A stretch of DNA of 64,000 bases, from NCBI RefSeq assembly GCF_050320075.1, contig NZ_CP190018.1; one strand, written 5' to 3'. Numbering within the stretch: position 1 is the stretch's first letter; every line of letters begins with the position of its first letter. This DNA is from Escherichia coli. GTDB lineage: Bacteria; Pseudomonadota; Gammaproteobacteria; Enterobacterales; Enterobacteriaceae. Shown here piece by piece: positions 2,596 to 25,177 of the stretch. Below the pieces are notes generated by a model that saw nothing but the letters and a program-made list of their open reading frames with translations, was not told the origin of the DNA and made no database searches. The position numbers and the translations under genes were made by a program.

Positions 2596-3651
2596 ATGAC
2601 GACATTTATTCAGCTTCATTTGTTAACCGCTTACCCTGCTGCCAACCTTAACCGTGATGACACCGGTGCGCCAAAAACTGTGGTACTGGGTGGAGCAACG
2701 CGTCTGCGCGTTTCCTCACAAAGTCTGAAACGTGCGTGGCGCACTTCTGCACTTTTTGAACAGGCACTGGCGGGCCATATTGGTATTCGCAGTGGGCGTA
2801 TTGCGCGTGAGGCGGCAACTATCCTGATTGAGAAAGGCATCGAAGAGAAAAAAGCCATCGAATGGGCGGCAAAAATTGCGGATTATCTTGGGAAAGCTAA
2901 AAACGACAAAAAACCAAAAGATCCGCTCACTAACGCCGAAACTGAACAGCTAGTCCATATCAGCCCGGCAGAATTTGACGCCGTAAAAGCGCTGGCCCAT
3001 CAACTGGCCGAAGAAAAGCGCGCGCCAAAAGAGGAAGATCTCGCTTTGTTACGTAAAGATCGCATGGCGGTAGATATCGCTATGTTTGGTCGTATGCTGG
3101 CGAATAAACCCGAATTTAATGTTGAAGCCGCCTGCCAGGTCGCGCATGCATTTGGTGTCAGTGAAACGATTGTCGAAGATGATTTTTTCACCGCCGTTGA
3201 TGATTTGCGCCAGGCTTCTGAAGATGCCGGTGCCGGGCATCTTGGTGAAACCGGATTCGGTTCTGCGCTGTTCTACACCTATATCTGCATCGATAAAGAT
3301 CTGCTGGTCGAAAACCTCGGCGGTGACGAAGCGTTAGCTAATCAGACCTTGCGCGCCTTTACGGAAGCCGCACTTAAAGTCTCCCCAACCGGCAAACAGA
3401 ACAGCTTTGCCAGCCGTGCCTACGCCTCCTGGGCGCTGGCAGAAAAAGGCACTGAACAACCACGCTCTCTGGCGGCGGCTTTCTATGAACCCATTAATGG
3501 CACCCGGCAGTTAGATGTGGCGGTGCAGCGTATTACAACGCTTCGCGAAAATATGAATACGGTCTATGAACAGAAGACCGAATGCGCAAGCTTTGACGTG
3601 ATGAACAAACAGGGAAGCATGAAGGACGTGCTGGACTTTATCTGCGCGTAA
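2596..3651 (+). CDS. cas7: Cas7/CasC, Cascade backbone subunit
   Basis: 351 aa, third Cascade gene, RBS AAGGA upstream. Confidence 0.85.
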   Translation: MTTFIQLHLLTAYPAANLNRDDTGAPKTVVLGGATRLRVSSQSLKRAWRTSALFEQALAGHIGIRSGRIAREAATILIEKGIEEKKAIEWAAKIADYLGKAKNDKKPKDPLTNAETEQLVHISPAEFDAVKALAHQLAEEKRAPKEEDLALLRKDRMAVDIAMFGRMLANKPEFNVEAACQVAHAFGVSETIVEDDFFTAVDDLRQASEDAGAGHLGETGFGSALFYTYICIDKDLLVENLGGDEALANQTLRAFTEAALKVSPTGKQNSFASRAYASWALAEKGTEQPRSLAAAFYEPINGTRQLDVAVQRITTLRENMNTVYEQKTECASFDVMNKQGSMKDVLDFICA

Positions 3652-13323: not shown

Positions 13324-14349
13324 TTGAGTTTGATAATCTCACTTACCTCCACGGTAAACCGCAAGGCACCGGGCTGCTGAAAGCCAATCCGGAAGACTTT
13401 GTGGTGGTGGAAGATTTGGGCTTTGAGCCTGATGGTGAAGGTGAGCATATTCTGGTTAGAATCCTCAAAAACGGCTGCAATACCCGTTTTGTGGCGGATG
13501 CACTGGCGAAATTCCTTAAAATTCATGCCCGTGAAGTCAGCTTCGCTGGGCAAAAAGACAAACATGCTGTAACGGAACAGTGGTTATGTGCTCGCGTGCC
13601 GGGCAAGGAAATGCCCGATCTGAGCGCCTTTCAACTGGAAGGCTGCCAGGTGCTGGAGTATGCGCGGCACAAGCGCAAGCTGCGTTTAGGCGCGCTGAAA
13701 GGTAACGCCTTTACCTTGGTTCTGCGCGAAGTGAGCAATCGCGATGACGTTGAACAACGTCTGATCGATATTTGCGTAAAAGGCGTGCCTAACTATTTTG
13801 GTGCCCAACGTTTTGGGATTGGCGGTAGCAACTTGCAGGGCGCGCTGCGCTGGGCGCAAACCAATACTCCGGTGCGCGATCGCAATAAACGGAGTTTTTG
13901 GTTGTCGGCAGCCCGCAGTGCGTTGTTTAATCAGATTGTTGCTGAGCGCCTCAAAAAAGCAGACGTTAATCAAGTTGTTGACGGCGATGCGCTACAATTA
14001 GCCGGACGTGGTAGCTGGTTTGTCGCAACCACCGAAGAACTGGCGGAATTACAGCGTCGCGTCAACGATAAAGAGCTGATGATAACCGCCGCATTGCCGG
14101 GCAGTGGCGAATGGGGAACTCAGCGTGAAGCGTTGGCATTCGAACAAGCAGCTGTCGCCGCAGAAACTGAATTACAAGCCTTACTGGTGCGCGAAAAAGT
14201 TGAAGCCGCGCGCAGAGCGATGCTGCTGTATCCGCAACAATTAAGCTGGAACTGGTGGGATGACGTCACCGTAGAAATCCGTTTCTGGCTTCCGGCGGGT
14301 AGTTTTGCAACCAGCGTTGTCAGGGAACTTATCAACACAACAGGTGATT

Positions 14350-14369
<20 letters not shown>
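13320..14369 (+). CDS. truD: tRNA pseudouridine(13) synthase
   Basis: 349 aa, E. coli TruD. Confidence 0.95.
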
Positions 14370-15731
<1,362 letters not shown>

Positions 15732-15870
15732 AACGTGAGGAAATACCTGGATTTTTCCTGGTTATTTTGCCGCAGGTCAGCGTATCGTGAACATCTTTTC
15801 CAGTGTTCAGTATGGTGCCTTGCACGGTAATTATGTCACTGGTTATTAACCAATTTTTCCTGGGGGATAA

Positions 15871-17010
15871 ATGAGCGCGGGAAGCCCAAAATTCACCGTT
15901 CGCCGCATTGCGGCTTTGTCACTGGTTTCGCTATGGCTGGCAGGCTGTTCTGACACTTCAAATCCACCGGCACCGGTCAGCTCCGTTAATGGCAATGCGC
16001 CTGCAAATACCAATTCTGGTATGTTGATTACGCCGCCGCCGAAAATGGGAACGACGTCTACAGCGCAGCAACCGCAAATTCAGCCGGTACAGCAGCCACA
16101 AATTCAGGCTACTCAACAACCGCAAATCCAGCCAGTACAGCCAGTAGCTCAGCAGCCGGTACAGATGGAAAACGGACGCATCGTCTACAACCGTCAGTAT
16201 GGGAACATTCCGAAAGGCAGTTATAGCGGCAGTACCTATACCGTGAAAAAAGGCGACACACTTTTCTATATCGCCTGGATTACTGGCAACGATTTCCGTG
16301 ACCTTGCTCAGCGCAACAATATTCAGGCACCATACGCGCTGAACGTCGGTCAGACCTTACAGGTGGGTAATGCTTCCGGTACGCCAATCACTGGCGGAAA
16401 TGCCATTACCCAGGCCGATGCAGCAGAGCAAGGAGTTGTGATCAAGCCTGCACAAAATTCCACCGTTGCTGTTGCTTCGCAACCGACAATTACGTATTCT
16501 GAGTCTTCGGGTGAACAGAGTGCTAACAAAATGTTGCCGAACAACAAGCCAACTGCGACCACGGTCACAGCGCCTGTAACGGTACCAACAGCAAGCACAA
16601 CCGAGCCGACTGTCAGCAGTACATCAACCAGTACGCCTATCTCCACCTGGCGCTGGCCGACTGAGGGCAAAGTGATCGAAACCTTTGGCGCTTCTGAGGG
16701 GGGCAACAAGGGGATTGATATCGCGGGCAGCAAAGGACAGGCAATTATCGCGACCGCAGATGGCCGCGTTGTTTATGCCGGTAACGCGCTGCGCGGCTAC
16801 GGTAATCTGATTATCATCAAACATAATGATGATTACCTGAGTGCCTACGCCCATAACGACACAATGCTGGTCCGGGAACAACAAGAAGTGAAGGCGGGGC
16901 AAAAAATAGCAACCATGGGTAGCACCGGAACCAGTTCAACACGCTTGCATTTTGAAATTCGTTACAAGGGGAAATCCGTAAACCCGCTGCGTTATTTGCC
17001 GCAGCGATAA
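15871..17010 (+). CDS. nlpD: Murein hydrolase activator lipoprotein NlpD (LysM + M23 peptidase domain)
   Basis: 379 aa, lipobox LAGC, Q/P-rich linker, LysM and degenerate M23 domain. Confidence 0.95.
16066..16160 (+). repeat. In-frame imperfect 24-bp tandem repeat inside nlpD (encodes QQPQIQPV-like units)
   Basis: Three consecutive 24-bp units starting 16066, 16090, 16114 plus a partial unit; read directly from DNA and translation. Confidence 0.6.
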
Positions 17011-17072
17011 ATCGGCGGAACCAGGCTTTTGCTTGAATGTTCCGTCAAGGGATCACGGGTAGGAGCCACCTT
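16500..17072 (+). promoter_or_regulatory. rpoS main promoter and long 5' UTR embedded in 3' part of nlpD (approximate)
   Basis: Established knowledge for E. coli: rpoS is transcribed from a promoter inside nlpD giving a ~570-nt leader targeted by DsrA/RprA/ArcZ. Coordinates are approximate; not mapped motif by motif. Confidence 0.5.
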
Positions 17073-18065
17073 ATGAGTCAGAATACGCTGAAAGTTCATG
17101 ATTTAAATGAAGATGCGGAATTTGATGAGAACGGAGTTGAGGTTTTTGACGAAAAGGCCTTAGTAGAAGAGGAACCCAGTGATAACGATTTGGCCGAAGA
17201 GGAACTGTTATCGCAGGGAGCCACACAGCGTGTGTTGGACGCGACTCAGCTTTACCTTGGTGAGATTGGTTATTCACCACTGTTAACGGCCGAAGAAGAA
17301 GTTTATTTTGCGCGTCGCGCACTGCGTGGAGATGTTGCCTCCCGCCGCCGGATGATCGAGAGTAACTTGCGTCTGGTGGTAAAAATTGCCCGCCGTTATG
17401 GCAATCGTGGTCTGGCGTTGCTGGACCTGATCGAAGAGGGCAACCTGGGGCTGATCCGCGCGGTAGAGAAGTTTGACCCGGAACGTGGTTTCCGCTTCTC
17501 AACATACGCAACCTGGTGGATTCGCCAGACGATCGAACGGGCGATTATGAACCAAACCCGTACTATTCGTTTGCCGATTCACATCGTAAAGGAGCTGAAC
17601 GTTTACCTGCGAACCGCACGCGAGTTGTCCCATAAACTGGACCACGAACCAAGTGCGGAAGAGATCGCAGAGCAACTGGATAAGCCAGTTGATGACGTCA
17701 GCCGTATGCTTCGTCTTAACGAGCGCATTACCTCGGTAGACACCCCGCTGGGTGGTGATTCCGAAAAAGCGTTGCTGGACATCCTGGCCGATGAAAAAGA
17801 GAACGGTCCGGAAGATACCACGCAAGATGACGATATGAAGCAGAGCATCGTCAAATGGCTGTTCGAGCTGAACGCCAAACAGCGTGAAGTACTGGCACGT
17901 CGATTCGGTTTGCTGGGGTACGAAGCGGCAACACTGGAAGATGTAGGTCGTGAAATTGGCCTCACCCGTGAACGTGTTCGCCAGATTCAGGTTGAAGGCC
18001 TGCGCCGTTTGCGCGAAATCCTGCAAACGCAGGGGCTGAATATCGAAGCGCTGTTCCGCGAGTAA
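17073..18065 (+). CDS. rpoS: RNA polymerase sigma factor RpoS (sigma-38), intact
   Basis: 330 aa from ATG 17073, [25 protein letters not shown]...; codon 33 is GAG (Glu), no amber. Confidence 0.97.
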
Positions 18066-18185: not shown

Positions 18186-18593
18186 CTATGTGTTCATCAT
18201 CTTGCGCACCAACTGCATAAACAGCTCCTGCTCTTCTGCACTCAAACGCCCCAAAAATTCCTCATCCACGCTGTCACCAATGGGGATCGCCGCAGCAAGT
18301 ACCTTTTCTCCTTCGGCAGTCAGCCAGACAAAGCGTCGCCGCTTGTCAGCGGCGTCATGTTCACGTCTGACTAAGCCACGATTTTCCATTCTTGCCAACA
18401 TTTCTGCCAGCGTTGCTTTGGTGCTGACTGCTGCTTCTATCAGTGCCACCTGTTCGATACCAGGCTTATCAGCAATGGCGCGCATCACCGCGTACTGTGG
18501 TTTGGTGAGGTCAGGTAACTCGTGCTGCCAGCGAGCCGTGTGCTGCTGAAAAAGCTGTCGTAACTGATGGAACGCTTTATTTCGTAACGCCAT
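18186..18593 (-). CDS. hosA: MarR/SlyA-family transcriptional regulator (HosA-like)
   Basis: 135 aa from ATG 18593 (GGAG RBS 5 nt upstream); winged-helix MarR pattern; divergent from the decarboxylase genes. Symbol from recollection of the rpoS-mutS islet in pathogenic E. coli. Confidence 0.75.
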   Translation of the reverse strand: MALRNKAFHQLRQLFQQHTARWQHELPDLTKPQYAVMRAIADKPGIEQVALIEAAVSTKATLAEMLARMENRGLVRREHDAADKRRRFVWLTAEGEKVLAAAIPIGDSVDEEFLGRLSAEEQELFMQLVRKMMNT

Positions 18594-18739
18594 GTAAACT
18601 CCGGGCAAACTATCTGCCGCTATCATAGCGGTTTTTCAGTGACGAAGAAGATGTTGTTACTTTTCAGTGCTTGCCGCGATGAAAACAGAGGCGTATTTTA
18701 ATAATAACGTTCGTATACGAACAATTAAGAGAATAAACA

Positions 18740-22498: not shown

Positions 22499-23275
22499 TT
22501 AGCGCCAGGCGTCAAACCAGCCAAGCCCTTCTTCGGTGAGGCCACGAGGTTTATATTCACAACCGATCCAGCCCTGATATCCCACCTCATCGAACAGGCG
22601 GAACAGCCACGGATAGTTGATTTCTCCATCGTCCGGTTCATGTCGATCAGGTAGTCCGGCAATTTGTACGTGCGCATATTTCCCGGCGTAGTCGCGGATT
22701 AAATGCGTCAGGTTGCCATCTACTTTTTGCGCATGAAAAGTATCTAGTTGAATAAACACGTTATCTCGTGCAACTTCTTCAACAATAGCCAGTGCCTGAT
22801 ACTGGCTGGAGAAGAGATAATGAGGCTTAACGCCGGGGCTGAGTGCTTCAACTAATATTCGCTTGCCGTGTGGCGCAAAGCGGTCGGCAGCGTAGCGGAG
22901 ATTATCGATAAATACTGCCCTGTACCGTTCAGCATCTTCGCCAGCGGGCACGACGCCTGCCATCACATGGACTTGTTCACAATTGAGCGCCAATGCATAT
23001 TCCAGTGCCAGGTCGATGTCTGCGTGTGCTTCGTGCTCACGTCCGGGAAGGGCGGATAATCCCCATTCCCCCGCATTAATATCTCCGGGAGCGGTATTGA
23101 ACAGCGCCAGTGTCAGATGGTTTTGCTCCAGTTGCTTTTGGATTTGCAGGGTGGAGTAGTCATAGGGAAACAGAAATTCCACAGCATCGAACCCGGCTTT
23201 TCGCGCTGCGGCGAAGCGTTCAATAAAAGGCACTTCGGTGAACATCATGGATAAATTAGCTGCAAAACGAGGCAT
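22499..23275 (-). CDS. ygbM: Hydroxypyruvate-isomerase-family protein YgbM (2-oxo-tetronate isomerase, OtnI)
   Basis: 258 aa, TIM-barrel xylose-isomerase-like; E. coli YgbM. Confidence 0.93.
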
Positions 23276-23279
23276 TGCA

Positions 23280-23918
23280 TTAACTCCTTAATTCCGCAAT
23301 TTCACCTGCGGTCAGATAACGGATCGGGCGGTCACCGAGAATAAAAATCAGCTTTGCCGTTTCCTCCAGCTCTTCCATATTGTTGGCGGCTTCTTGCAGG
23401 CTTTCACCGCAAACCACTGGGCCATGATTTGCCAGTAAAAAAGCCTGATTGTCTGCTGCCAGTTCCGCCAGATCCTGTGCGATGCGTTTATCGCCCGGTC
23501 GGTAATAAGGCACCAGCGGGACATTTCCCATCCGCATCACCACGTATGGTGTGAACGGACGAATAACGTTGCTGCTGTCCAGCCCTTGCAGGCAGGAAAG
23601 CGCCGTCGACCATGTGCTGTGCAAATGCACCACCGCTTTACAGCGCGGATTGTTGCGATACAGCGCCAGATGAAAGAGCACCTCTTTCGAGGGTTTGTCA
23701 CCACTTAACCATTCGCCATCCGCGGCGACTTTGGAAAGCCGCTGCGGATCGAGATTGCCCAGGCATGAACCTGTCGGTGTCGCCAGTAAATTCCCGTCAG
23801 GTAAAAGCAGCGACAGATTGCCAGCCGAACCGGTTGCATAGCCGCGCTGAAAGAATGAACTGGCAATCCGCGTCATCTCCTCTCGCAAAGACTGCTCTAC
23901 TTTTGCGAAATCGCTCAT
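23280..23918 (-). CDS. ygbL: Class II aldolase/adducin-family protein YgbL (OtnC)
   Basis: 212 aa; E. coli YgbL. Confidence 0.93.
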
Positions 23919-25177
23919 GATAAAAACTCTCTTTGGGCTCGTGAAAAAAAGGCTTCATCACCGAAGTTGCCAGATTTAAGGGCGAGTGAGACAGGTTTAT
24001 CCAGTGCGTTTACCCACGGCACGCCGGGAGAAATGGTTGGGCCAATATGAAACCCTTTTATTCCCAGGCTCTGTGTGACTACGCCGGAGGTCTCACCGCC
24101 TGCGACAATAAAGCGTGTCACGCCTTCCGCTGCTAACCGCGCCGCTAGTTGAGAAAACAGTGTTTCTACTGCCTGACTGGCTTTTTGTGCACCGTATTGC
24201 TGTTGAATTGCTGCCAATGCGTCAGTGCTGGCGGTGGCAAAAACCAGTGGAGCAAGTACACTTTCCTGGCCCAGAACCCACTCTGCCAGTTCGTGTGCAT
24301 AAGCGGCCAGAGTTTCAATTGAGAGGCAGCGTGCCACATCAACTTCACGGGCTGGTGCAATTTGACGGTAATGTGCTACCTGGCGGTTGGTCATTTGAGA
24401 GCATGAACCGGAGAGCACTACGCCGCGCCCAGCGAGCGGATGCCCTGCTTTGCGAGCCTGGTTACCGTTTTCTTGCGCCCACTGCCGGGCAAGGCCAATC
24501 GCCAGACCAGAACCGCCCGTTACCAGTGGGGTATCGCGCAAGGCTTCTCCCTGAATTTCCAGATGGTGTTCGGTCAGCGCATCAAGCACCGCGTAGCGGT
24601 AGCCCTCTTGCTGTAAGCGAGCCAGCTCTTGACGAACGGCATCCACACCTTGTTCGAAAACATGTGCCGAAACGACGCCGCAGCGCCCTGTGGATTGCGC
24701 TTCAACCAGACGGGGAAGATAGCTGTCGGTCATGGGATTTACCGGGTGATGGCGCATCCCGGATTCGGCCAGCAGTTGATTCATTACGAACAAATACCCC
24801 TGATAAACCGTACGTCCGTTGACCGGCAGGGCCGGAGAGAAGACCGTAAACGGCGTGTCGAGAGCATCCATTAATGCATCGGTAACCGGGCCGATATTAC
24901 CTTTCGCCGAACTGTCGAAAGTAGAGCAGTATTTGAAATAGATCTGTTTGCAACCTTGCTGTTGCAACCAGCTCAGTGCCGCCAGCGATTGCTGTGTGGC
25001 TTCAACCACCGGACAGGAACGCGTTTTCAGGCTGATCACCAGTGCGTCGATTGCTTCCGGCATTTTACCTGTTGGAACACCGTTAATTTGTACCGTTGGT
25101 AGACCGTTTTCCACCAGAAAACTGGCGATATCCGTCGCGCCGGTAAAATCATCGGCGATAACGCCAATCTTGATCAT
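23915..25177 (-). CDS. ygbK: Four-carbon acid sugar kinase YgbK (OtnK)
   Basis: 420 aa; E. coli YgbK. Confidence 0.9.
   Translation of the reverse strand: MIKIGVIADDFTGATDIASFLVENGLPTVQINGVPTGKMPEAIDALVISLKTRSCPVVEATQQSLAALSWLQQQGCKQIYFKYCSTFDSSAKGNIGPVTDALMDALDTPFTVFSPALPVNGRTVYQGYLFVMNQLLAESGMRHHPVNPMTDSYLPRLVEAQSTGRCGVVSAHVFEQGVDAVRQELARLQQEGYRYAVLDALTEHHLEIQGEALRDTPLVTGGSGLAIGLARQWAQENGNQARKAGHPLAGRGVVLSGSCSQMTNRQVAHYRQIAPAREVDVARCLSIETLAAYAHELAEWVLGQESVLAPLVFATASTDALAAIQQQYGAQKASQAVETLFSQLAARLAAEGVTRFIVAGGETSGVVTQSLGIKGFHIGPTISPGVPWVNALDKPVSLALKSGNFGDEAFFSRAQREFLS

Follow-up and report, generated by a model that had tools for sequence, protein, structure and literature searches.

An imperfect 24-bp tandem repeat in Escherichia coli nlpD is probably an old amplification of a conserved linker motif

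The in-frame 24-bp repeat of Escherichia coli nlpD is most probably (we put the probability at about 0.8) an old, imperfect tandem amplification of a conserved motif in the N-terminal tether of NlpD. We analyzed it in a window of E. coli DNA, meaning the whole stretch of 64,000 nucleotides, and among other strains and species. The repeat is already known, since the first sequencing of nlpD, and matters little alone. Ichikawa, Li, Fu & Clarke 1994 (J Bacteriol 176:1630) name the "unusual amino acid repeat sequences" of NlpD in their title, and Tidhar et al. 2009 (PMC2736372) described the Pro/Gln-rich N-terminal repeat region of the protein. By this title and the account of Tidhar et al., the gene, the region and the repeat are the same as in the window, and the feature itself does not differ. 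On strain-level length polymorphism of the nlpD repeat, no paper was found in the searchable literature. Such length variation affects about 1% of genomes, making the repeat an ordinary feature of modest value as a lineage marker.

Gene and domain context

The cell-division protein NlpD is a lipoprotein of the outer membrane that activates the amidase AmiC. Its coding sequence lies at 15871-17010 on the + strand, as do all features given below, and encodes 379 amino acids plus the stop codon (ORF call, NCBIfam and Pfam). A profile search matches residues 4-379 to NCBIfam NF008123, "murein hydrolase activator NlpD", with 679 bits (cut-off 311). The NLPD_ECOLI entry of the protein collection holds the same 379-aa sequence; the window NlpD is identical to the K-12 protein. 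Its parts stand in the order that defines NlpD: lipobox signal peptide, LysM, and a C-terminal degenerate LytM/M23 domain. The ORF translation begins with a lipoprotein signal peptide (15871-15948) ending in the lipobox LAGC, with Cys26 encoded by TGT at 15946-15948 and unchanged across 25 species. By the Pfam domain limits, the N-terminal linker of residues 27-122 (15949-16236) leads from the lipid anchor to the LysM peptidoglycan-binding domain (residues 123-165, 16237-16365; PF01476, E = 2.7e-12) and houses the repeat. The degenerate LytM/Peptidase_M23 domain occupies residues 279-372 (16705-16986; PF01551, E = 4.6e-33), and its relatives in the PDB are the LytM domains of DipM and EnvC.

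The gene downstream in the nlpD-rpoS operon is rpoS at 17073-18065 (NCBIfam NF004207 RpoS, 604.6 bits), and pcm lies upstream of nlpD (TIGR00080, 331 bits). The family scan covered pcm, nlpD and rpoS; the ORF at 14305-15111, upstream of pcm, is called surE by its position in annotated related loci, where RefSeq annotation gives the same surE-pcm-nlpD-rpoS order.

Anatomy of the repeat

Positions 16066-16161 hold four in-frame 24-bp units, three of them clean and the fourth degenerate. Position 16066 opens codon 66 of nlpD and each unit spans eight codons, so that the period, a multiple of three, stays in frame. The units are U1 at 16066-16089 (CAGCAACCGCAAATTCAGCCGGTA, encoding QQPQIQPV), U2 at 16090-16113 (CAGCAGCCACAAATTCAGGCTACT, QQPQIQAT), U3 at 16114-16137 (CAACAACCGCAAATCCAGCCAGTA, QQPQIQPV) and U4 at 16138-16161 (CAGCCAGTAGCTCAGCAGCCGGTA, QPVAQQPV). 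Between Cys26 and LysM the encoded peptide therefore reads (QQPQIQxx)x3 and then QPVAQQPVQ. The anchor sequences bounding the array segment are AAAATGGG(A/G)ACGACGTC and ATGGAAAACGGACG. U1 and U3 are the closest pair with 21/24 identical nucleotides, and their three differences are all synonymous; U1 and U2 share 17/24, U2 and U3 15/24. The clean units are thus 62-88% identical in DNA, with a longest exact in-register run of 11 nt, and U4 matches the other units at 9-14/24 positions. An earlier note on this DNA had spoken of three and a half imperfect units in nlpD coding for a Gln/Pro-rich linker, which is a fair wording for three clean units and a remnant; its start at 16066 is right and its end at 16160 stops one base before the codon ends at 16161, a trivial difference.

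The 33 residues of the repeat segment, lying between Cys26 and LysM, include 16 Q and 7 P. With such a biased composition, the periodicity might be a chance repeat in a low-complexity segment and the strain variants assembly errors, and Tandem Repeats Finder does report only 70% matches (16069-16133, period 24, 2.7 copies, score 67). Against this, QQPQIQ recurs exactly three times at a strict spacing of eight residues. In addition, the self-identity at lag 24 over 72 nt reaches 32/48 matches, where the window averages 13.2 (sd 3.3), and the ten start positions that reach 32/48 at this lag all lie at 16059-16068, with none elsewhere in the 64-kb window. The 24-bp periodicity is far above chance and unique in the window. 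The copies are head-to-tail and their period is in frame with the host ORF, as in a coding minisatellite.

Few short exact direct repeats remain in the array and at its edge. An 11-nt repeat, CAACCGCAAAT, stands at 16069-16079 and, at an offset of 48, at 16117-16127. A 12-nt repeat, CAGCCGGTACAG, stands at 16081-16092 and, at an offset of 72, at 16153-16164. The third is a perfect tandem of 9 bp x 2, CAGCCAGTA (QPV-QPV), found by Tandem Repeats Finder at 16129-16146 across the U3/U4 boundary.

Conservation of the encoded peptide

The codon differences between units within the QQPQIQ core are synonymous in 8/8 cases in E. coli, in 13/13 in the divergent RM9387 allele and in 20/20 in E. albertii; neutrality would predict 17% synonymous. 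Since the units differ in this hexapeptide only at synonymous sites, the peptide is under selection. Purifying selection keeps the core unchanged, and the units have drifted apart in their DNA at synonymous positions. Among 81 Enterobacteriaceae NlpD sequences, PQIQPV occurs in 57 and the looser Q[IVLM]QP[VIM] in 72; the core columns of unit 1 are 80-99% identical to E. coli, against 0-30% for the adjacent linker residues. Clean units number three in the Escherichia lineages and four in E. albertii, and other genera carry degenerate copies only. Three clean units are also kept in the divergent imported allele. These comparisons show a PQIQPVQ motif, conserved across Enterobacteriaceae, that was multiplied specifically in Escherichia to give the units. 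With a core that varies only synonymously and a motif found family-wide, part of a supposedly unstructured linker is sequence-constrained, and this core is a concrete target for structure-function studies of NlpD.

Length alleles among strains

Copy number was compared among 5,420 complete E. coli genomes by gapped blastn with synthetic allele queries. A megablast census returned no length variants but is uninformative: alignments are broken at gaps of 24-48 bp and the identity given is an average over the fragments, which is why gapped blastn and synthetic alleles were required. About 98.6% of the genomes carry the canonical length, with a Nei diversity of 0.027. The remainder include a loss of two units (Δ48) in 61/5,420, a gain of 48 bp (+48) in one and a loss of 72 bp (Δ72) in one, strain Z142-6. 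Exact look-ups in a collection of 15 billion proteins covered the single-unit (±8-aa) and ±3-aa alleles; the ±8-aa alleles, giving two and four clean units, were found only in that larger collection. Alleles with one, two, three, four and five clean units all exist, the last in strain PapRG-04-4, so copy number does differ within the species. The commonest change removes or adds two units together, between U1 and U3, the most alike pair, and not single 24-bp steps. Every length change observed is a multiple of three and keeps the frame.

The earlier note had called the repeat prone to copy-number variation and a possible length marker. The copy number is indeed not identical among strains, and the variation is real, yet its degree is not that of a variable-number tandem repeat (VNTR), where allelic diversity is high and unrelated strains usually differ. 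As in the coding minisatellites used for MLVA, the period is a multiple of three, the host gene encodes an envelope protein and alleles differ by whole units. Unlike MLVA loci, the nlpD repeat shows little diversity, its units have diverged synonymously instead of being homogenized, and a two-unit change is the commonest. The prediction is thus true in kind and weak in degree, and general VNTR typing with this repeat is unadvisable on the evidence of the closed genomes.

A stronger version of this idea would make the repeat a hypervariable contingency locus, whose frequent copy changes switch or tune the expression of NlpD or rpoS and suit fine-scale MLVA typing. The range from one to five clean units and the several independent deletions would fit it. 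Most of the evidence points the other way. One length dominates the complete genomes; a unit length divisible by three makes a frameshift switch impossible; the units are dissimilar and their exact in-register runs short; and three clean units are kept in several Escherichia species and in the divergent imported allele. The rpoS promoter sits inside nlpD (PMC5533458). When 15700-17100 was scanned for promoters and terminators, the array gave no hit, and the array and its vicinity lack a promoter-like site. The rpoS promoter itself should be several hundred bases further downstream. A change in length therefore does not toggle expression in the manner of a phase-variable locus, with the frame kept and no promoter-like site in the region, and a regulatory role of the array at the DNA level was dropped on the same scan. 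The stable inheritance of one deletion through a whole O157:H7 subgroup, described below, also speaks against frequent switching. The contingency-locus reading is largely refuted, and we regard it as very unlikely.

Junctions and origin of the length changes

Each variant junction falls within an exact direct repeat, 7-12 nt long. For most Δ48 alleles, and likewise for the reciprocal +48 allele, the crossover was in the 11-nt repeat CAACCGCAAAT. Most Δ48 alleles accordingly carry a U1/U3 hybrid unit, strain PEC145 carries a pure U1, and the +48 allele carries the reciprocal U3/U1 hybrid. The Δ72 junction, from the alignment of Z142-6 to the window, coincides with the 12-nt repeat CAGCCGGTACAG. 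Over 5,049 flanking columns, the O157:H7 Δ48 allele is identical to a three-unit O157:H7 strain, against 33-38 flanking differences from the other Δ48 alleles. Judged from their junctions and flanks, the deletions had at least three independent origins. The Δ48 allele common to some backgrounds (ECCWS199 and 2013C-3342) could instead reflect horizontal transfer rather than recurrence.

These features also bear on the possibility that the variants are assembly errors. They occur in dozens of closed genomes, sequenced independently in different laboratories, and have precise in-frame junctions placed on microhomologies. They are inherited by clade, and the units are much shorter than sequencing reads. 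Together with the regular spacing of QQPQIQ, this leaves the compositional-artefact explanation with a probability close to nil.

Replication slippage between short direct repeats is an established mechanism of deletion and duplication in E. coli. From the products, we infer that the nlpD length changes may arise by RecA-independent replication slippage or template switching at microhomologies; the sequences fit slippage and recombination alike. In such a scheme, the 11-nt repeat at offset 48 would yield changes of ±48 bp, the 12-nt repeat at offset 72 would yield Δ72, and the perfect 9-nt tandem would yield ±9 bp. The units have ceased to be identical, which is why such changes are rare. Slippage products would stay in frame and give a working protein with a shortened or lengthened tether. 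The likeness to microhomology-mediated slippage in E. coli lies in the 7-12-nt repeats at the junctions and in the reciprocal deletion and duplication at the 11-nt repeat. The difference is that for nlpD the mechanism is deduced from products only.

A stable deletion in O157:H7 clade 8

Within O157:H7 clade 8, the subgroup SG8_30 carries the Δ48 allele in each of its 12 closed genomes; among its members are EC4115 and TW14359 from the 2006 spinach outbreak as well as SS17 and SS52, both super-shedders. The other clade 8 subgroups have 23 closed genomes, none of which is on the Δ48 list, and the three of them examined directly carry the three-unit allele. Across SG8_30, the allele is therefore stable and inherited within the lineage. 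Another protein background, labelled Shigella by its sources, is likewise rich in this Δ16-aa allele, and a Δ48 allele with T228A is common to E. coli and Shigella. As a length marker, then, the repeat is of use as a lineage-diagnostic indel, not for general typing: Δ48 can be sized cleanly by PCR and separates the closed SG8_30 genomes from those of the sister subgroups. No report of an nlpD deletion in clade 8 or in TW14359 was found in the searchable literature, and neither the SS17 paper, with its supplements, nor the clade 8 paper mentions nlpD.

Structure and possible roles of the linker

The NlpD linker is predicted to be disordered by DISOPRED (Tsang et al. 2017, PMC5533458). A PDB search found no solved structure that spans it. 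An AlphaFold2 model from a 25-species alignment gives residues 16-119 no secondary structure, with pLDDT of 25-31, in a model that is poor as a whole (mean 36.7), so that these low values are no proof of disorder. Periplasm-spanning disordered tethers are known from the LpoB linker, the Pro-rich spacer of TonB and Lpp, whose length is critical. Like these, the NlpD linker is low-complexity, Pro-rich and predicted-unstructured, and lies between a membrane anchor and domains that reach the peptidoglycan. Unlike length-critical Lpp, NlpD has natural alleles with linkers of 51 to 91 residues in apparently healthy lineages. This range and the common Δ16-aa allele imply that selection on the exact length is weak.

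The segment may act as a spacer, flexible and rich in Pro and Gln, that governs the reach of LysM and LytM from the outer membrane to the septal peptidoglycan and AmiC, and might also bear a weak binding motif. We infer the spacer role from the domain order and from the discussion of Tsang et al., who doubt that simple distance control explains everything when linkers are this long, as anchoring alone leaves the reach unrestricted (PMC5533458).

Alternatively, the repeat could be an array of short linear motifs that docks peptidoglycan or a partner associated with the divisome or Tol-Pal, with copy number setting avidity, so that Δ48 and +48 would alter the localization of NlpD or its activation of AmiC. 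The strict purifying selection on the core fits this view, as does PQIQPVQ being much better conserved than the flanking linker residues in 81 species. We know of no binding partner. A structural preference, for instance a propensity for polyproline II, could explain the conservation equally well. Single-unit alleles are fixed in successful lineages (O157:H7 SG8_30 and the Shigella-labelled background), which speaks against this view. In its favor, a linker-only mCherry fusion is weakly enriched at midcell, and lipidation is not the cause (PMC5533458). Against it, Yersinia NlpD is without the region and yet acts in cell morphogenesis and virulence (PMC2736372, PMC6553720). On balance, such docking seems unlikely. 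The fuller claim, that QQPQIQ/PQIQPV is a multivalent motif by which the tether docks on peptidoglycan or a septal partner and that copy-number alleles alter NlpD-AmiC activity, we hold to be quite improbable; in its favor, the core is under strict purifying selection and conserved family-wide, and the linker alone goes weakly to midcell. If it were true, allele copy number would alter cell separation or envelope behavior, and the alleles concerned would be those with one unit (SG8_30, Shigella-labelled background) and with five units (PapRG-04-4).

Variation in the 9-bp tandem

The 9-bp x 2 repeat at 16129-16146, which the earlier note did not mention, changes by ±9 bp independently of the 24-bp units. 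In the 90-95% identity band of the census, 12/23 records are neither +9 nor Δ9; local alignments of Δ48 haplotypes may account for some of these, and alleles rich in SNPs or further small indels for the rest. The Δ9 allele occurs in 7/5,420 complete genomes and in 83 contigs of the protein collection, and the +9 allele in 4/5,420 and in 234 contigs.

Repeat array in nlpD

The nlpD gene occupies 15871-17010 (+ strand, 379 aa) with pcm upstream and rpoS downstream, and its product scores 679 bits against the NCBIfam equivalog for murein hydrolase activator NlpD (cut-off 311). The LysM domain spans residues 123-165 and the Peptidase_M23/LytM domain residues 279-372. The array begins exactly at codon 66 and comprises four in-frame 24-bp units on the + strand: U1 (16066-16089, QQPQIQPV), U2 (16090-16113, QQPQIQAT), U3 (16114-16137, QQPQIQPV), and the degenerate U4 (16138-16161, QPVAQQPV). 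The Gln/Pro-rich segment, counted over 33 residues, has 16 Q and 7 P. The earlier note had described three and a half imperfect units encoding the Gln/Pro-rich linker of NlpD. The repeat is real, as unit parsing, Tandem Repeats Finder (period 24, 2.7 copies, 70% matches) and lag-24 self-identity agree; the last reaches 32/48 (window mean 13.2, sd 3.3), a value attained nowhere else in the 64 kb. A second tandem picked up by the program, CAGCCAGTA at 16129-16146 (perfect, 9 bp x 2), is absent from the note. No long ORF overlaps the array on the opposite strand, and a site scan found no promoter-like or terminator-like site within it.

The repeat is already known, and the note identified it correctly. 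Judging by a title cited in PMC2736372, it has been in the literature since a 1994 paper by Ichikawa et al. Tsang et al. 2017 (PMC5533458) describe the region as an N-terminal linker, predicted to be disordered, and found that a linker-only NlpD fusion has weak midcell affinity. No solved structure covers the linker, the PDB relatives matching only residues ~235-379. AlphaFold2 gives it no secondary structure (pLDDT 25-31), in a model that is poor as a whole (mean pLDDT 36.7).

In the annotation of related loci, current RefSeq/PGAP places the nlpD start codon at a TTG that corresponds to window position 15916, giving a 364-aa product (348 aa for alleles lacking 48 bp, 380 aa for the allele gaining 48 bp) whose signal peptide would be only 11 residues long and lack a charged N-region. 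Translation from the ATG at 15871 gives the classical 379-aa NlpD of entry NLPD_ECOLI, with K7/R11/R12 before the hydrophobic core. The PGAP start looks wrong, and it divides one gene among separate database protein clusters.

Length alleles among strains

Array alleles are named here by the bp lost (Δ) or gained (+) relative to the canonical length. A megablast census of complete E. coli genomes showed no length variants. That result is unreliable, since gaps of this size break a megablast alignment apart, and we therefore used gapped blastn with synthetic allele queries. With a 331-nt wild-type query, 63 of 5,420 records fell to 80-90% identity. A synthetic two-unit-deletion query matched 62 records at 95-99%, 59 of them seen directly as gapless 283-nt spans; the remaining genomes aligned to this query at 80-90%, which shows, as a positive control, that the search can bridge gaps as long as 48 nt. 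The +48 allele is a single record in the collection (PapRG-04-4, span 379 nt), as is Δ72 (Z142-6, span 259 nt). The 90-95% band of the 331-nt query holds 0 records, and therefore no ±24-bp allele exists among the complete genomes. A 120-nt array query placed 23 records in that band, where synthetic queries identified four as +9 and seven as Δ9. The other 12, neither +9 nor Δ9, may be small indels of another kind, haplotypes rich in SNPs, or Δ48 alleles aligned only locally. Altogether, ~5,346 of 5,420 complete genomes (98.6%) have the canonical length, with 61 Δ48, 7 Δ9, 4 +9, 1 +48 and 1 Δ72, and the Nei diversity of array length is 0.027. The 5' part of nlpD finds no match at all in six of the 5,426 complete genomes. 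Separately, at least one genome matches at two places, the total of matching places rising to 5,422 with the shortest query.

Exact-sequence look-up in a 15-billion-protein collection, counted in contigs, extends this range. In the K-12 background of NlpD, the canonical 379-aa protein occurs in at least 1000 contigs, beside +3 aa (QPV; 234), Δ16 aa (160), Δ3 aa (QPV; 83), Δ8 aa (25 + 1), Δ24 aa (20), +16 aa (6) and +8 aa (3). The T228A background has Δ16 aa in at least 1000 contigs, Δ24 aa in 38 and +16 aa in one, and the N46H (O157:H7) background has Δ16 aa in at least 1000. The T228A Δ16-aa sequence is named a Shigella UniRef cluster by the sources, and its S. dysenteriae and S. flexneri members are likewise 363 aa. 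Together with the census, these counts mean that alleles with 1, 2, 3, 4 and 5 clean units all exist. The copy number is therefore not the same in all strains, and the predicted strain-to-strain variation holds in that sense, but the array is far from hypervariable. Variation is rare and mostly lineage-bound.

One such lineage is SG8_30, a subgroup of O157:H7 clade 8. Among the 35 closed clade 8 genomes sorted by subgroup in Table 2 of PMC9997748, all 12 SG8_30 genomes are in the Δ48 list (EC4115, TW14359, SS17, SS52, JEONG-1266, 147, 2009C-3378, 2009C-4687, 2010C-3142, CEC96047, 8_140198 and 26_141088), as are 0 of 23 from the sister subgroups SG8_31A, 8_31B, 8_32 and 8_33. Direct inspection of three sister-subgroup genomes (CEC03102, CEC13002, ECP17-46) found the full-length allele. 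We found no mention of nlpD in PMC9997748 or in the SS17 paper and its supplements, and no paper in the searchable literature that links nlpD to clade 8 or to TW14359. Only three items are mildly new: the allele census, the association of Δ48 with SG8_30, and the evidence for the repeat core as a selected motif.

Junctions and origin of the variants

Each variant junction falls in a short exact direct repeat. Most Δ48 alleles keep a U1/U3 hybrid unit, CAGCAA...ATCCAGCCAGTG, with the crossover within the 11-nt repeat CAACCGCAAAT (16069-16079 and 16117-16127); in the +48 allele the hybrid is the reciprocal one, U3/U1. Δ72 has its junction at the 12-nt repeat CAGCCGGTACAG (16081-16092 and 16153-16164), and the ±9 alleles gain or lose a single copy of the perfect 9-nt tandem. 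No other pair of units is as alike as U1 and U3 (21/24), which explains why two-unit steps predominate. Homologies of 7-12 nt, read with established knowledge, make replication slippage or template switching the probable route, rather than RecA-dependent recombination.

At least three independent events are supported. EC4115 (O157:H7, Δ48) shows 0 differences from a three-unit O157:H7 strain over 5,049 aligned flanking columns, and 33-38 from the remaining Δ48 alleles. In PEC145 (Δ48) the unit left is a pure U1, which places the crossover in the 7-nt repeat GT(A/G)CAGC and makes it a separate event. PK8566 has its own flanks and its own SNP in the hybrid unit. Allele sharing among backgrounds, such as ECCWS199 and 2013C-3342, could instead be due to recombination.

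Evolution, constraint and function

In a comparison of 80 loci, one genome per species, three clean units occur in three Escherichia lineages, and E. albertii NlpD (386 aa) has four. In Citrobacter, Salmonella, Enterobacter, Kosakonia, Buttiauxella and others, only a degenerate stretch, PQIQPVQ...QPTQIQPV...QQPVQ, is present. All codon differences between units in the QQPQIQ core are synonymous (8/8 in E. coli, 13/13 in strain RM9387, 20/20 in E. albertii), against 17% expected for random single-base changes, and non-synonymous differences are confined to the unit's final two codons. Over 81 sequences, identity to E. coli is 80-99% in the PQIQPVQ columns and 0-30% at adjacent linker residues. 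The array is therefore old, has not been homogenised by gene conversion, and encodes a peptide under selection. Slippage stays rare because the units have diverged at synonymous sites.

Three units are also encoded by the divergent nlpD allele of E. coli RM9387 (NZ_CP009104.1, locus ~2900-3330), despite a DNA identity of 82%. Identity to other E. coli is down to ~82% in the 5' third of the gene and in the flanks; ~350 differences occur over 5 kb, where ordinary strains differ from one another by 30-55. The rpoS protein is nevertheless the common allele. The region appears to have been imported by recombination from a different species, either of Escherichia or of another enterobacterial group. 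Residues 27-65 of NlpD (window 15949-16065) contain AP[VI]xS[VIA] in 81/81 Enterobacteriaceae species and the pattern GM[LM][IV]TxPP in 73/81, so the linker has several constrained motifs besides the repeat.

The repeat lies in the tether joining the outer-membrane anchor to the peptidoglycan-binding and amidase-activating domains. It may act as a flexible spacer adding to domain reach, and the conserved motif possibly has a weak binding role. The lipobox cysteine stands 60-84 residues away from the conserved GRIVYNR motif in the genera compared, 75 in E. coli, and 59, 51 and 91 in the Δ48, Δ72 and +48 alleles. A strict length requirement is argued against by one-unit alleles fixed in successful lineages and by Yersinia NlpD, which is without the repeat region (PMC2736372). 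Pure filler is in turn disfavoured by the sequence constraint on the repeat core. We favour, at roughly 80% probability, a known repeat that amplifies a conserved motif and undergoes rare slippage-type indels. A stronger claim, that copy number alters the phenotype through the putative binding motif, seems unlikely.

Loci neighbouring nlpD

In CEC13002 (NZ_AP026116.1, O157:H7; locus 15605-16849), a deletion leaves hypB and rpoS both truncated and fused to each other. Lost between them are the remaining hyp genes, flhA (as the annotation calls the formate hydrogenlyase activator), ygbA, mutS, pphB and the decarboxylase/MarR genes, and the strain is predicted to be rpoS-deficient and mutS-deficient. 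In CEC03102 (NZ_AP026112.1, O157:H7 clade 8; locus 23190-24181), the annotation gives rpoS as a frameshifted pseudogene, another case of lost rpoS beside intact nlpD. Downstream of rpoS, the window has a MarR-like ORF (18186-18626, - strand). O157:H7, PapRG-04-4 and PK8566 have a MarR-family gene there, followed by hydroxyarylic acid decarboxylase genes, and K-12, ECCWS199 and PEC145 have ygbN directly. This is the rpoS-mutS region, already known to be polymorphic, and both of its structural types include genomes with a Δ48 allele.
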